Positions 5,054 through 11,643 of a DNA stretch of 45,744 bases are shown piece by piece (the stretch's first letter is position 1; every line of letters starts with the position of its first letter). A program made the translations under genes and the position numbers. The notes beneath the pieces were generated by a model. It was not told the origin of the DNA. It did not search any database and saw only the letters and a list, made by a program, of their open reading frames with translations. Source of the stretch: a virus; IMG/VR virus record IMGVR_UViG_3300005253_002051. One strand, written 5' to 3'.

Positions 5054-5083
5054 TTGACATTCGGTTAGACAATCTGTTATACA
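5054..5083 (+). promoter_or_regulatory. sigma70/sigmaA-type promoter (TTGACA-N18-TATACA) for the TelA-like operon
   Basis: TTGACA at 5054-5059 and TATACA at 5078-5083, about 40 nt upstream of the 5125 start. Confidence 0.5.
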
Positions 5084-5124
5084 TCATTTATTGAAACGTT
5101 TCTGCGGAAAAAGAGGAGATCAAA

Positions 5125-6276
5125 ATGGCTACATTAACGAAAGATGACGCGGTCAAGGTTGAGATGGAAGTCAGCATGGCCGACAGCAAGGGTGCTTTAG
5201 CAGTCCTAGCGGACAATAAATCACCCGAAGATCAGGCTAAAGTTCTACAACTTATGGCCCAGATTAACATGGATGACACAACTTCTGTCATTTCCTTCGG
5301 TGTCAGCGCCCAGGCAGGCCTATCCGAGCAGAGTAGCGCGATGCTTGCTGGTGTGCGTAATAAGGACACTGGACCAGCCGGTCAAGTTATGAACGGTCTT
5401 ATGGTTCAGATTCGCGGATTGGGTCTAGACGACTTAGATCCGAATGCAAAGCGTGGCTTTATTGCTAAGCTGCTCAAAAAGCTAACACCGCTTCAGAAGT
5501 TCATTCAACAGTATGAAAGTATCGAATCACAGATTGATGCGACGGTTGCTAAGCTCGAAGGCGAGCAGAAGAAGCTCAATCGCGACGTCTTAATGCTTGA
5601 TGGCATGTATAACGAGGCATTAAAGTTCTTCAATGAGCTTGCTTTTTACATTGAAGCGGCTGAGATGAAGCTTGAAGACGTCCGTGCTGTTGATATTCCA
5701 GCACTACAAGCGCACGCGGACAAAACCGACAACATGATGGATCATCAGAAAGCTAAAGATATGGTGGATCGTTCCATGGATTTGGAGCGCAAGATTCACG
5801 ATCTTATGCTTACGCGCACTGTAACTATGCAGATGCTCCCTCAGCTTCGTATGATTCAGGATACAGACAAATCGCTTGTCACCAAGATTGGTTCTTCTAT
5901 CTTGGTAACGATTCCTGTCTGGAAGAATCAGATTGCTATGAGCATTGCTCTTCACAATCAGGCTGGTGCTGCTGCGGTTACTAAAGCAGTTGGCGATGCT
6001 ACAAGTGAGATGATTGAGACGACTGCCAAACAGCTCAGAACTGGTAATGCGGCAGCTCGTAAGGAAGTTGAGCGTGGCGTTATCGACATCGAGAGCATCA
6101 AGCGAGCTAATGAGGACTTGATTGCTACGATTGCTGAATCAATTCAAATCGCCGAGGAAGGTCAGCGTGCTCGTATTGCCGCCAAGGCAGATATGAATCA
6201 GTGTGAGACCGAGCTCAAAGCTGCTCTTCGTGATGCAAAAGGCACTGTAGTAGACGCAGTTGCTGATTCTATCTAG
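5125..6276 (+). CDS. telA: TelA / YaaN / KlaA family toxic-anion-resistance-like protein
   Basis: Family-typical blocks ISFGVSAQAGLSEQSSAMLAGVRNKDTGPAGQVMNGLMVQI, DGMYNEALKFFNELAFYIEAAEMKLED and LMLTRTVTMQMLPQLRMIQD..ILVTIPVWKNQI. Confidence 0.8.
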   Translation: MATLTKDDAVKVEMEVSMADSKGALAVLADNKSPEDQAKVLQLMAQINMDDTTSVISFGVSAQAGLSEQSSAMLAGVRNKDTGPAGQVMNGLMVQIRGLGLDDLDPNAKRGFIAKLLKKLTPLQKFIQQYESIESQIDATVAKLEGEQKKLNRDVLMLDGMYNEALKFFNELAFYIEAAEMKLEDVRAVDIPALQAHADKTDNMMDHQKAKDMVDRSMDLERKIHDLMLTRTVTMQMLPQLRMIQDTDKSLVTKIGSSILVTIPVWKNQIAMSIALHNQAGAAAVTKAVGDATSEMIETTAKQLRTGNAAARKEVERGVIDIESIKRANEDLIATIAESIQIAEEGQRARIAAKADMNQCETELKAALRDAKGTVVDAVADSI

Positions 6277-6303
6277 TTTTAACTTTAGAGAAGGAGAAGG
6301 AAA

Positions 6304-8079
6304 GTGAGAAAGATTTTTTCATTAGCGGCAATTGCTACTACGTTTTCGTTAGTAGCCGCTGCGTTTTCGCCTAACTCAGCAAGTGCTCAGAACTACGTCG
6401 AGATGAAACCTCTCGCTGAAGTTCTTGCAGGTGCCAGTGTTCGTGATTGTCGCGGCGGTGAAGGTCAAAATGTTACCATGATCACATGGGGTGCAGACAT
6501 TTTTACTCTTCATGCTAATGGCGCGTCACTTACTACACAGCCTGGGAGCATTTTTGCCGACGAAGGCTTAACTGTTACGTTGAAGAGAGAGGATGTTTTT
6601 GCAAAGCAGGTTGAAGCATATTTGCGTTGTGACACTCCGTATCTTCGTGGGACACTTGGACAGATTAACTTAGCTAGCGACATTACTGCTGTTAATCCTG
6701 GCACCGAGATGGTTCCGATCATTCAACTTAGCTGGTCGAATGGTGGTGATGCTCTTGTTGCTAAAAAGGGTATCAATAAGCCAGCAGATCTAAAGGGTAA
6801 GACAATCGTGGTTCAGGCTTATGGGCCGCACGTTGCTTATCTTAATAAGGTTCTTGCCGACGCCGGCTTAACGCCGAACGATGTCACTATCGTTTACACC
6901 AAAGACTTAGTTGGTTTCGATGACGATACGACACCTGGAAGCGCGTTCCTCGATGATCCAAATATTGATGCGGCAATGGTTATTATTCCAGATGCGCTAA
7001 AATTAACATCAGGTGGAACTGGCGGAACTGGCGCAGAGAATTCGTTCGACGGCGCAGAGATTATGCTTTCTACCAAATCTGCAAGCCGTGTTATCGCAGA
7101 CGTTTATGTCGTGCGCAAAGACTACCTTGAGGCAAACAGAGATGAAGTTCAGAAGTTTGTTCACGCTCTCTTAGTTGCCGAGGAAAGTCTTAGGAAGCTG
7201 GTTCTAGAGAAAGATACTCGGACAGATGAATACAACGCGATTATTGTTGCCGCTGCCGGTCATCTTCTCGATGCTCCAACTGACATCGACGACACGGAAG
7301 GTATGTATGCCGATGCCGAGACAATTGGGTTTGCTGGCAACAAGAAGTTCTTTGAAAACACTAAGTATCCAAGGAACGTCACTAAGCTTACCAGTGAGAT
7401 CCAGACGGCGTATGTCCAGCAAGGTATGTTGGCTGCTACTGCATCATTAGGTTCTGCTACTTGGAACTATGATGCTCTAAAGGCTGGCATCACTAACACG
7501 ATTGCTAAAACTACGCCTAAGTTCAATGCCGATAAGTTGGCCGCTGCTGTGACCAACATGGCATCAAGCGGCGCCTTAGATGATGGAACATTATTCGAGT
7601 TCCAAATCAACTTTCAGCCGGAACAGGACACATTCTCTGTGGAGATTTATGGAGATGCGTTTAAGCAGGTAGTTGACCTAGCATCTACTTATGCTGGCGC
7701 GATTATTACGGTTGAAGGGCACAGTGATCCAGCAAACTTCATTAAGAAGATGAAGAACGGTGCTGGTGAAGGTATTCTAAATCGTATTAGGCAGCGTGCC
7801 AAGAATCTTAGCGTTAGTCGCTCAACTGCGGTTCGTAAGGCTGTCTTGGACATGGCTGCTGCTTCTGGTGTTCCGATGGACCCAAGTCAGTTTGTGACTA
7901 TTGGTTATGGCATTTCAAACCCGGCTACTGGTGTCTGTCAGAGAAAAGATGAGCCACTTTGCTTAGCTGCTGGACTTCCAAGATATCCGGCAAATAAAGC
8001 GGAATGGCTTAACAACATGCGTGTTGTGTTTAAAATCATTAACGTCGAGGCTGAATCCTCAGCGTTCGAAACATTTTAA
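6304..8079 (+). CDS. secreted protein: periplasmic solute-binding-like N-domain plus C-terminal OmpA/MotB-like peptidoglycan-binding domain
   Basis: Signal peptide MRKIFSLAAIATTFSLVAAAFSPNSASAQ. C-terminus ITVEGHSDPANF..NLSVSRSTAVRKAVL..GYGISNP matches the OmpA_C motif. Confidence 0.7.
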   Translation: MRKIFSLAAIATTFSLVAAAFSPNSASAQNYVEMKPLAEVLAGASVRDCRGGEGQNVTMITWGADIFTLHANGASLTTQPGSIFADEGLTVTLKREDVFAKQVEAYLRCDTPYLRGTLGQINLASDITAVNPGTEMVPIIQLSWSNGGDALVAKKGINKPADLKGKTIVVQAYGPHVAYLNKVLADAGLTPNDVTIVYTKDLVGFDDDTTPGSAFLDDPNIDAAMVIIPDALKLTSGGTGGTGAENSFDGAEIMLSTKSASRVIADVYVVRKDYLEANRDEVQKFVHALLVAEESLRKLVLEKDTRTDEYNAIIVAAAGHLLDAPTDIDDTEGMYADAETIGFAGNKKFFENTKYPRNVTKLTSEIQTAYVQQGMLAATASLGSATWNYDALKAGITNTIAKTTPKFNADKLAAAVTNMASSGALDDGTLFEFQINFQPEQDTFSVEIYGDAFKQVVDLASTYAGAIITVEGHSDPANFIKKMKNGAGEGILNRIRQRAKNLSVSRSTAVRKAVLDMAAASGVPMDPSQFVTIGYGISNPATGVCQRKDEPLCLAAGLPRYPANKAEWLNNMRVVFKIINVEAESSAFETF

Positions 8080-10665: not shown

Positions 10666-10667
10666 AA

Positions 10668-10820
10668 ATGAAAAGAAAACCAACACGTAAGATTGATTTA
10701 TTTTTCTTCGAATATGAATCACGCTATGATGAAAATGATGATTATGTCGTACATTGGGAAATTGATTGGTTCTGGCTCGCCGTAACTGCCGCTGTGATAG
10801 TTGTACTATTTTTCAGATAG
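10668..10820 (+). CDS. small membrane protein (50 aa)
   Basis: ATG at 10668 with GGAG 7 nt upstream gives MKRKPTRKIDLFFFEYE...WFWLAVTAAVIVVLFF. Confidence 0.45.
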   Translation: MKRKPTRKIDLFFFEYESRYDENDDYVVHWEIDWFWLAVTAAVIVVLFFR

Positions 10821-10830
10821 GAGATTAAAG

Positions 10831-11643
10831 ATGTCCAAAAGTGTTATTGATCTTACAAAAATGACGCCAGAAGCGATTAAGGGCAATGTTCTTAACGCGA
10901 CCTTAACCAATCCAATGTCGATCTATCCAATGTGCGGTGGAATGTTGCTGATTGCTTTTTGGTTCATTTTCAATGCTACTTGGATCTTTACCCTTATCGG
11001 AGGCTTTGCTGTTTTCGGTGGCATTGGTTTGTTCCTTTACAATTATTTTGGTCGATTCCATTATTATCAAGCAGATTATTTTGCCAGGCTTCGTAAAGAC
11101 AACGAAAAAATAGCAAAAAAGAAGCTCCGTGTAGTCCAACAGTATCTTGGCGACCGCGGCTGGGATCAAGGTGCTGCCCAGGTAGATAAGCTTCAAGTCA
11201 AAATGGAAAGTTTTGAGCGTGTTCTCGACAAGAAGTTTGAAACGGGCGAAATGGCTCATGCGCGTTATCACGGTATTGCGGAACAGGTTTATATGAATGC
11301 TTTGGAAACGCTGGAACAAGTTGTTATAGAGCTTGAAGCAATTGATTCCATTGATCCAGATTATATTGAAGGTCGTATTGAAGAACTAGAACAAAAAACA
11401 GGGACATCTTCAGAAGTTATAGAAAGAGATTCTCTGATAGAACGTTATGAACTTCGTCAGAGTGGATTGGAGCGAGCAGAACTTCTGCTGGCTCAAAACG
11501 AGAGAGCAATGACCGGCCTAGACGTTGTTGCTAGCGATATCGCTACTGCTAAGACCGATGGAAAAGATATCCAGAAGGAACTTGACAGTGCGGTTAAAAA
11601 GTTGAACGAGCTTGGAAAAGAAGCTCAGAAACATTGGGGTTAA
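10831..11643 (+). CDS. membrane protein with two N-terminal TM helices and a long coiled-coil cytoplasmic domain; possibly XpaC-like (partner of TelA/YaaN)
   Basis: ATG at 10831 after AGGAGAT gives MSKSVIDLTKM. Two hydrophobic helices are followed by a helical, charged C-terminus. The XpaC assignment rests on architecture and its position next to a TelA gene, not on a motif. Confidence 0.4.
   Translation: MSKSVIDLTKMTPEAIKGNVLNATLTNPMSIYPMCGGMLLIAFWFIFNATWIFTLIGGFAVFGGIGLFLYNYFGRFHYYQADYFARLRKDNEKIAKKKLRVVQQYLGDRGWDQGAAQVDKLQVKMESFERVLDKKFETGEMAHARYHGIAEQVYMNALETLEQVVIELEAIDSIDPDYIEGRIEELEQKTGTSSEVIERDSLIERYELRQSGLERAELLLAQNERAMTGLDVVASDIATAKTDGKDIQKELDSAVKKLNELGKEAQKHWG

Follow-up and report, generated by a model that had tools for sequence, protein, structure and literature searches.

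Envelope genes on a huge-phage-like genome: what are they?

The stretch of viral DNA analysed here, IMG/VR record IMGVR_UViG_3300005253_002051 (45,744 nucleotides, from marine-sediment metagenomes, PRJNA259156; the whole of it is called the window below), carries a compact run of genes for a TelA protein and several periplasmic and membrane proteins, which raises the question of what this gene set is and what it would do for a phage. Gene content and gene order show that the region is a copy, carried by a phage, of an envelope operon that is conserved and mobile in bacteria. The module consists of TelA, two solute-binding proteins (SBPs) with OmpA-like domains (SBP1 and SBP2), a vWA protein, a two-transmembrane (TM) protein here called CC, and an ATP-binding cassette (ABC) importer with its own transporter SBP. 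The preferred reading, to which we give a probability of about 0.45, is a system on large mobile elements in which peptidoglycan-anchored proteins capture a small cationic nitrogen compound for import, in conjunction with a TelA module at the inner membrane. An earlier note on this DNA had described the first seven genes of the module as an envelope-associated sensing or stress system; as a whole, its observation was confirmed in part and its interpretation supported in part.

The gene set recurs in bacteria and on plasmids

Relatives of SBP2 were identified in 293 species genomes, scanned at one genome per species; 80 of the relatives' loci were fetched, and the 47 with enough flanking DNA were counted. 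The bacterial order is SBP1 with its OmpA-like domain, vWA, TM-SBP2-OmpA, CC and TelA, usually followed by the SBP, permease and ATPase of the importer. The same order was observed across Desulfobacterota (including cable bacteria), Gammaproteobacteria (Photobacterium, Motilimonas), Elusimicrobiota, Nitrospinota, Nitrospirota and others. SBP1 and vWA were present in all 47 counted loci, CC in 46 and TelA in 39, and the importer SBP, permease and ATPase in 36, 35 and 34, respectively; in 49 bacterial loci the open reading frame (ORF) of TelA starts right after CC. The gene set is also found on Vibrio megaplasmids of 240-320 kb, where the PGAP names (nitrate-SBP, VWA, 'phosphate ABC transporter substrate-binding/OmpA family', hypothetical, toxic anion resistance and, for the transporter SBP, 'putative urea ABC transporter substrate-binding protein') fit our assignments.

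Judged from these neighbourhoods, co-occurrence of the module genes is far beyond chance. The possibility raised earlier that the genes are randomly juxtaposed is contradicted by the recurring gene set and order in the 47 loci, and the proposal of a linked envelope module holds across bacteria, plasmids and phages. The module had first been ended at 11643, which is too early, as the conserved unit runs to 15354 with the ABC importer.

Some operons have lineage-specific extras, among them a RaSEA-like radical SAM enzyme and an AAA ATPase. The RaSEA-related protein lies 5' of SBP1 in L007, L008 and 12 other bacterial loci, in Desulfobacterota; it carries a Cx4Cx2C motif and matches TIGR01210 with an E value of 1e-31, below the cut-off of the model. 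This gene and a gene for a 218-aa protein, both companions of the operon in some bacteria, are absent from the window.

Diverged phage lineages keep the module

The whole module, with TelA first, recurs in L098 and L099 (close relatives), L100, L006/L010 and L092. These relatives include a 359 kb IMG/VR contig and a near-identical locus (L010) on a 74 kb Logan contig, the proteins of which are also recorded on a 570 kb contig; on the 81 kb contig of L092, the module lies beside rIIA/rIIB-like genes. Among the phage relatives the identity of SBP2 falls from 93% to 44% while the gene order is kept; at least four diverged lineages of huge-phage-like genomes have the module. A more distant version without TelA is present in the 595 kb phage LR756511. 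Searching the phage collection with the module DNA by megablast gave no match, and a scan of viral contigs for SBP2 with short patterns gave no confirmed relative, the patterns being too specific.

The window itself shows one-directional coding, many small orphan ORFs and three tRNA genes scattered among protein genes (1026-1096, 23935-24015 and 28882-28952, + strand), as is typical of large phage genomes. By relatives and context, the phage-like setting suggested at first is best described as huge-phage-like.

Phage lineages have inserted small genes of their own into the operon, including those of the two tail-anchored proteins ahead of CC (48 and 50 aa, the tiny TM proteins initially noticed, each with a C-terminal TM segment), and each has an orthologue in another lineage: the 48-aa protein at the same position in L100, the 50-aa protein at the same position in L098 and L099. 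Two further small ORFs separate permease and ATPase, where bacterial operons have no genes; the first has an orthologue in L098. In L006/L010, TelA and the ATPase show one apparent frameshift each, the same in two independent assemblies.

TelA has been replaced by a member of another clade

The assignment of the first gene to the TelA/YaaN family is firmly supported, with 318.6 bits against a cut-off of 30 for Pfam PF05816 (E 5.9e-95, profile positions 2-331 of 332) and a match to PHROG 5890, 'tellurite resistance'. Its sequence has no hydrophobic segment, and a PDB sequence search gave no match. Likeness of TelA to pore formers of the ClyA family (AhlC, ClyA, XaxB) was considered and not used, all Foldseek matches having E>0.01.

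The origin of the phage TelA differs from that of the bacterial operon. Phage TelAs share a mean identity of 43% with TelAs linked to XpaC versus 19% with those of the bacterial operons, and in a neighbour-joining tree they group with the XpaC-linked clade, cleanly apart from the operon TelAs. Their nearest bacterial relatives (in Loktanella, Chromatiales and others) adjoin Halogen_Hydrol genes, Halogen_Hydrol being the Pfam family of XpaC. In the phage lineages, the operon-cognate TelA that would follow CC is absent, and a TelA of the XpaC-linked clade stands at the 5' end instead. Both clade and position thus suggest that a phage ancestor lost the cognate TelA and gained another one at the front. 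This replacement argues that the module needs a TelA and that members of the two clades can substitute for each other.

Alternatively, the phage TelA could be an independent moron, functionally unconnected to the captured transport module that it happens to adjoin. Phages commonly carry TelA as a gene by itself (197 phage records have a match), and both its separate origin and the TelA-free module of LR756511 would suit such a gene. However, the gap between TelA and SBP1 is just 27 bp, and this junction persists in four lineages whose proteins are now 44-52% identical. The bacterial operon, moreover, has its own TelA in 83% of loci, so the phage TelA would fill a vacated role. We therefore regard an unconnected TelA as very unlikely.

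Two anchored solute-binding paralogues and a vWA protein

Two fusions of a solute-binding domain with an OmpA domain had been proposed, and both were recovered, SBP2 from its own sequence and SBP1 at the level of its family. SBP2, with more than 500 homologues and about 40% identity in bacteria, scores 61.7 bits with the Pfam OmpA model PF00691 (cut-off 27.2, E 8.6e-17). It has the motif NMDLSKQR at residue 453 (NxxLSxxR) and GHSG instead of the usual GH(T/S)D; its NMT1/SsuA-like domain matches Pfam NMT1 and Phosphonate-bd as well as NCBIfam models. SBP1 matches Pfam NMT1 (E 3.8e-11) and, weakly, the TauA structure 6SSY. The C-terminal domain of the window protein scores 19.6 bits with PF00691, below the cut-off of 27.2, and the same model is matched by 25 of 26 SBP1 orthologues (E<=0.01); the family profile matches PDB 3TD3, an Acinetobacter OmpA-like domain (E 6e-6), and OmpA-like motifs are present (GHSD at 472, NLSVSR at 501). 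The two proteins align over their whole lengths with an hhalign probability of 97.9% and, on this profile evidence, are full-length paralogues sharing one architecture. SBP2 is predicted to span from the inner membrane to the peptidoglycan, and SBP1 to be free in the periplasm with a peptidoglycan anchor. In L006/L010, two 287-aa genes take the place of SBP1 and encode its binding domain and its OmpA-like domain separately.

The protein between them agrees with the earlier description as a vWA lipoprotein with a metal-ion-dependent adhesion site (MIDAS). It exceeds the Pfam cut-offs of both VWA_2 (40.4 bits) and VWA (31 bits), has complete metal-site residues (DGSGS at 83, GQGT at 155, TDG at 190), and carries the lipobox LAAC at residues 17-20, followed by DD. 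About half of its orthologues have a lipobox and the rest an N-terminal TM helix. The protein is predicted to be tethered to the inner membrane, on its outer face, given a lipid tether with Asp at +2 or, in many orthologues, a TM helix.

The importer and the likely ligand

Downstream of CC, three genes encode a NitT/TauT-type importer, with SBP, permease and ATPase of the same class. The transporter SBP scores 340.3 bits with TIGR03427 (cut-off 333.9); the permease matches Pfam BPD_transp_1 (E 1e-18) and the NCBIfam models of TauC, SsuC and NtrB; and the ATPase matches ABC_tran (E 1.9e-33) with Walker A at residue 40, LSGG at 141 and Walker B at 161. All ORFs of the module are intact. A PDB sequence search with the transporter SBP gave no match.

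All three SBP domains are homologous by hhalign, the binding domain of SBP2 matching the transporter SBP with a probability of 96.4%. The aligned D...D positions are kept in all three, and aromatic pocket-like residues are kept in SBP2 and the transporter SBP. The segments D120-x-S-x-G-G-D126 and W204-E-P and the residue D232 of SBP2, in which Y52, D126, W204 and D232 are invariant, align with D107-x-S-x-G-N-D113, W181-N-P and D209 of the transporter SBP; SBP1 keeps D149 and D266. The pocket-like residues of the transporter SBP are W36, D113, W181 and D209, and its position 39 is W in the family consensus and L in the window protein.

TIGR03427 is a urea-carboxylase-region family, found beside urea carboxylase genes, which we take to be those now regarded as guanidine carboxylases under guanidine riboswitch control. 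A NitT/TauT-type SBP with a guanidine dissociation constant of ~97 nM is GimA of Synechocystis, with a predicted pocket of W59, W62, F205, D135 and D233 (PMC12704784). When position numbers alone are compared, W36, 39, D113, W181 and D209 of the transporter SBP show a near-constant offset of 22-24 residues from W59, W62, D135, F205 and D233 of GimA. Because of this GimA-like spacing and the membership in TIGR03427, our best guess for the ligand is a small cationic nitrogen compound, most likely of the guanidinium or urea type.

The importer also bears on the possibility that the module is an exclusion or competition device, in which the anchored proteins and a TelA-CC layer would alter the envelope against competing phages or plasmids, and the SBPs would be sensors or scaffolds rather than feeders of a transporter. 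The module is carried by huge phages, mobilisable megaplasmids and chromosomes, it adjoins rIIA/rIIB-like genes in L092, and its core persists without the importer in some bacteria. For TelA and vWA proteins of Ter systems, a role in structures beneath the membrane that prevent entry has been proposed, with use by jumbo phages against superinfection (Iyer et al. 2021, PMC7824862). However, the module usually comes with an intact ABC importer, and conservation of the SBP pockets is strong, which points to real ligand binding; most chromosomal copies lie outside obvious defence islands, and PADLOC matches to defence families are limited to generic OmpA and ABC domains. An exclusion device is thus an unlikely explanation of the module.

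CC is not XpaC but resembles it in architecture

The 270-aa CC protein had been described as XpaC-like, and this identity failed in all profile tests. The window protein does not match the Halogen_Hydrol model (PF10112) even at E<=10, and no match at E<=1 was obtained across 28 members of the CC family (the window protein and 27 relatives), whereas a genuine XpaC scores 90 bits with this model. Alignment of the CC family with an XpaC profile of four sequences only gave an hhalign probability of 3.4%, and reciprocal hmmsearch between CC and XpaC gave E>1 in both directions. The CC family comprises 918 representatives at E<=1e-3 and is without a Pfam model. An AlphaFold2 model of CC (pLDDT 77) consists of a TM hairpin and a helical bundle, and a fold search with it returned merely generic helical bundles and designed proteins. 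What CC shares with XpaC is architecture, namely N-terminal TM segments, a cytoplasmic helical domain and, in bacteria though not in the window, adjacency to telA. Both TelA and the helical domain of CC are predicted to be cytoplasmic.

This resemblance brings in a further alternative, in which the module serves envelope-stress sensing and repair as a Gram-negative counterpart of the XpaC-TelA response of Firmicutes. The SBP-OmpA proteins would monitor peptidoglycan or a periplasmic metabolite, CC-TelA would be the effector that protects the inner membrane, and the ABC system would be a co-regulated neighbour. The adjacency of CC and TelA mirrors xpaC-telA pairs, and the exchange of the cognate TelA for one of XpaC type in phages suggests that the two are interchangeable. 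In Enterococcus faecium, xpaC-telA is upregulated and implicated in daptomycin resistance (PMC6811118), a link that fits a stress function. However, the transporter SBP is homologous to both anchored SBP domains and has pocket motifs in common with them, which argues for one ligand-centred system, and a regulator or kinase is absent from the core. A stress response in which transport is incidental appears rather unlikely to us.

A proposed mechanism and what weighs against it

In the capture-and-import reading preferred here, the paralogous SBP-OmpA proteins would be held on the peptidoglycan, one secreted and one anchored in the inner membrane, and would bind the same small solute as the transporter SBP or a related one, so as to concentrate or sense it beside the importer. 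The vWA protein may bridge partners through its metal site. CC would bring cytoplasmic TelA to the inner membrane, the role suggested for XpaC with TelA elsewhere, and CC-TelA at the complex could stabilise or gate the membrane. By expressing the set, a huge phage may keep the host envelope intact and supplied through a long infection.

Several observations weigh against this proposal. The importer is absent from about a quarter of bacterial loci, including Photobacterium, so uptake cannot be the whole function; TelA is missing from about one sixth of bacterial loci as well as from phage LR756511. SBP1 has no Trp at the position of W204, the ligand guess rests on residue spacing, and the structure model of TelA is of low confidence (pLDDT 60). 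Finally, the window holds no virion genes, so its phage assignment rests on relatives and context.

Layout, promoters and composition

The first seven genes (5125-11643) are all on the + strand, with intergenic gaps of 2-70 bp, in agreement with the tight co-directional packing first reported. Three of them start too early in the ORF list; the corrected ATGs lie at 10519, 10668 and 10831, each with an upstream GGAGA ribosome-binding site. Of the two promoters claimed, the internal one at 8904 is well supported, with 11/12 consensus positions and an extended TG in the promoter scan. Support for the one at 5054 is weak: a perfect TTGACA was read directly at 5055-5060, with a weak -10 element, and the scan did not list it. 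All features are collected in Table 1.

Table 1. Features of the module and the small genes inserted into it, with positions in the window
Feature	Position	Strand	Description
Promoter-like site	5055..5084	+	TTGACA, spacer 17-18 nt, weak -10 (TTATAC/TATACA); 5' of TelA
TelA, 383 aa	5125..6276	+	Predicted cytoplasmic; Pfam PF05816
SBP1, 591 aa	6304..8079	+	Secreted; signal peptide, NMT1/TauA-class solute-binding domain, divergent OmpA-like C-terminal domain
vWA lipoprotein, 267 aa	8095..8898	+	Lipobox, Ser/Thr-rich linker, MIDAS vWA domain
Internal promoter-like site	8904..8932	+	TTGACA, 17 nt, TG-TATGAT
SBP2, 515 aa	8969..10516	+	N-terminal TM anchor, NMT1-class solute-binding domain, OmpA/MotB-type peptidoglycan-binding domain
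Small tail-anchored membrane protein, 48 aa	10519..10665	+	Ribosome-binding site and ATG, C-terminal TM; phage lineages only
Small tail-anchored membrane protein, 50 aa	10668..10820	+	C-terminal TM; paralogue-like to its 48-aa neighbour; phage lineages only
CC protein, 270 aa	10831..11643	+	TM hairpin at ~29-70, then predicted cytoplasmic helical bundle
Transporter SBP (periplasmic substrate-binding protein of the ABC importer), 343 aa	11662..12693	+	NCBIfam TIGR03427
ABC importer permease	12777..13610	+	TauC/SsuC/NtrB type; Pfam BPD_transp_1
Two small phage-type ORFs (94 and 105 aa)	13880..14471	+	Inserted between permease and ATPase
ABC importer ATPase	14455..15354	+	Pfam ABC_tran, Walker motifs

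The seven-gene region has a GC content of 0.442, versus 0.393 in the remaining window. The GC content is thus raised as the earlier note had said, but modestly rather than clearly. GC at third codon positions is 0.33-0.51 in the genes of this region versus 0.23-0.36 in most other genes of the window, and 0.26-0.28 in the two small ORFs between permease and ATPase, as in the phage background. This composition fits the foreign origin proposed for the region. Acquisition as a single unit is doubtful for TelA, which differs in clade and position from the operon's own.

Neighbouring genes

Just 5' of TelA, the window encodes a secreted PDZ protease of the S41 (Ctp/Prc) type (3048-4301, +), which is syntenic in L098, L099 and L100, and a 191-aa orphan on the opposite strand (4352-4927, -). 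Other phage lineages have a glucosaminidase at the position of the S41 gene, and L100 has a MotA/ExbB-like gene further upstream. Four tandem paralogous small ORFs (1125-2126, +; 77-97 aa) share the N-terminal motif (V)ESTIVERLKEQDLNxxDLLQxH and have no family match.

Host-like genes at 21263-28289 encode a dihydroorotate dehydrogenase-like protein, Hsp20, a sensor-less histidine kinase core, an RlmN/Cfr-like radical SAM methyltransferase and an aldehyde dehydrogenase; SBP1 of phage LR756511 likewise has an aldehyde dehydrogenase gene directly upstream. A 1670-aa protein (39252-44264, +) combines a subtilase S8 domain with eight He_PIG immunoglobulin-like repeats and cadherin-like and flagellin-IN motifs.

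At a distance of about 2 kb, the module is followed by a gene for a full-length major vault protein (MVP) homologue of 858 aa, with Vault_3 repeats and MVP_shoulder domains (17380-19956, +), preceded by a perfect TTGACA-17-TATAAT site (17292-17320). It is syntenic in L010 (60% identity), L098 and L099, and 40% identical to genes in the 462-735 kb phages LR756500, LR756501 and LR756503. In LR756500 and LR756501, module genes are absent within 17-20 kb of the MVP homologue, so MVP is not an obligatory partner. A link between TelA and MVP is conceivable, because in bacteria a Band_7/SPFH gene often comes after xpaC-telA and the vault shoulder resembles SPFH. According to an old claim, MVP and TelA are reportedly related. 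A new trans-periplasmic machine might then be imagined, in which the anchored SBPs would sense a cationic nitrogen metabolite and signal through CC-TelA to remodel the inner membrane, with participation of the phage MVP homologue. We consider such a machine a long shot; if real, it would give the claimed relation of MVP and TelA a prokaryotic setting.

Comparison with known systems

A literature search by component names found no paper that combines them, in line with the initial impression that the operon had not been described, although Anantharaman et al. 2012, on Ter and TelA, may hold a prior mention. The components belong to known families; no description of the operon, of the CC family, of the anchored SBP paralogues or of their capture by huge phages turned up in the literature searched.

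One close likeness is to the xpaC-telA (yaaN) pair of Firmicutes and Proteobacteria, in which a TelA gene comes right after the gene of a membrane protein that has TM segments at its N-terminus and a helical domain in the cytoplasm; identity between the phage TelA and TelAs beside Halogen_Hydrol genes is 43%. The module differs in that CC has no detectable sequence relation to XpaC, that the operon around CC-TelA is larger and includes SBP-OmpA and vWA proteins of the periplasm, and that four genes lie between TelA and CC in the phage. For decades TelA has, to our knowledge, been a 'resistance' protein without a mechanism. As part of a conserved operon, together with a transporter and partners in the periplasm that are defined, it becomes open to concrete experiments on binding and uptake. 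Genetic work is possible as well, because culturable strains of Photobacterium (such as P. angustum ATCC 25915), Motilimonas and Desulfogranum carry the operon, as do Vibrio plasmids such as pSEA2 of Vibrio alfacsensis.

The Ter/TelA systems of jumbo phages likewise place TelA on large mobile elements, and roles in membrane protection or exclusion have been proposed for it (Iyer et al. 2021). A further TelA on a large mobile element is that of the kilA/telAB determinant of plasmid RK2. In contrast to both, TelA is accompanied in the module by SBP-OmpA proteins, a vWA protein in the periplasm and an ABC importer. Pfam scans of 30 window ORFs detected no TerB, TerC, TerD, TerF, KlaA or TelB, and with no TerB, TerC or TerD beside TelA the module does not belong to the Ter systems (TerZABCDEF).

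SBP2 resembles the anchors MotB and ZorB of the MotB/Pal/ZorB group in combining an N-terminal TM segment with a C-terminal OmpA-like domain. It differs from them in having no MotA, TolQ or ZorA partner, no Asp in its TM segment, and a solute-binding domain in the periplasmic linker. Membership in Zorya or another known defence system was rejected, as PADLOC matched the OmpA domain to ZorB and the ATPase to generic ABC models and found no ZorA.

With GimABC and the TIGR03427 transporters, the importer shares an SBP, permease and ATPase of the same class, an SBP above the TIGR03427 cut-off and, by position numbers, the spacing of aromatic and Asp residues of the predicted GimA pocket. However, no urea or guanidine carboxylase or hydrolase was present in the loci examined, Rfam detected three tRNAs and no riboswitch in the window, and the module adds two SBP paralogues fused to peptidoglycan anchors.

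Phages are known to supplement nutrient uptake of their hosts, for example with cyanophage pstS, which encodes a periplasmic SBP for a host-type ABC importer. Unlike such single genes, the module carries the whole importer plus five more envelope genes, an unusually large captured host module that has been kept across deep divergence of huge phages.

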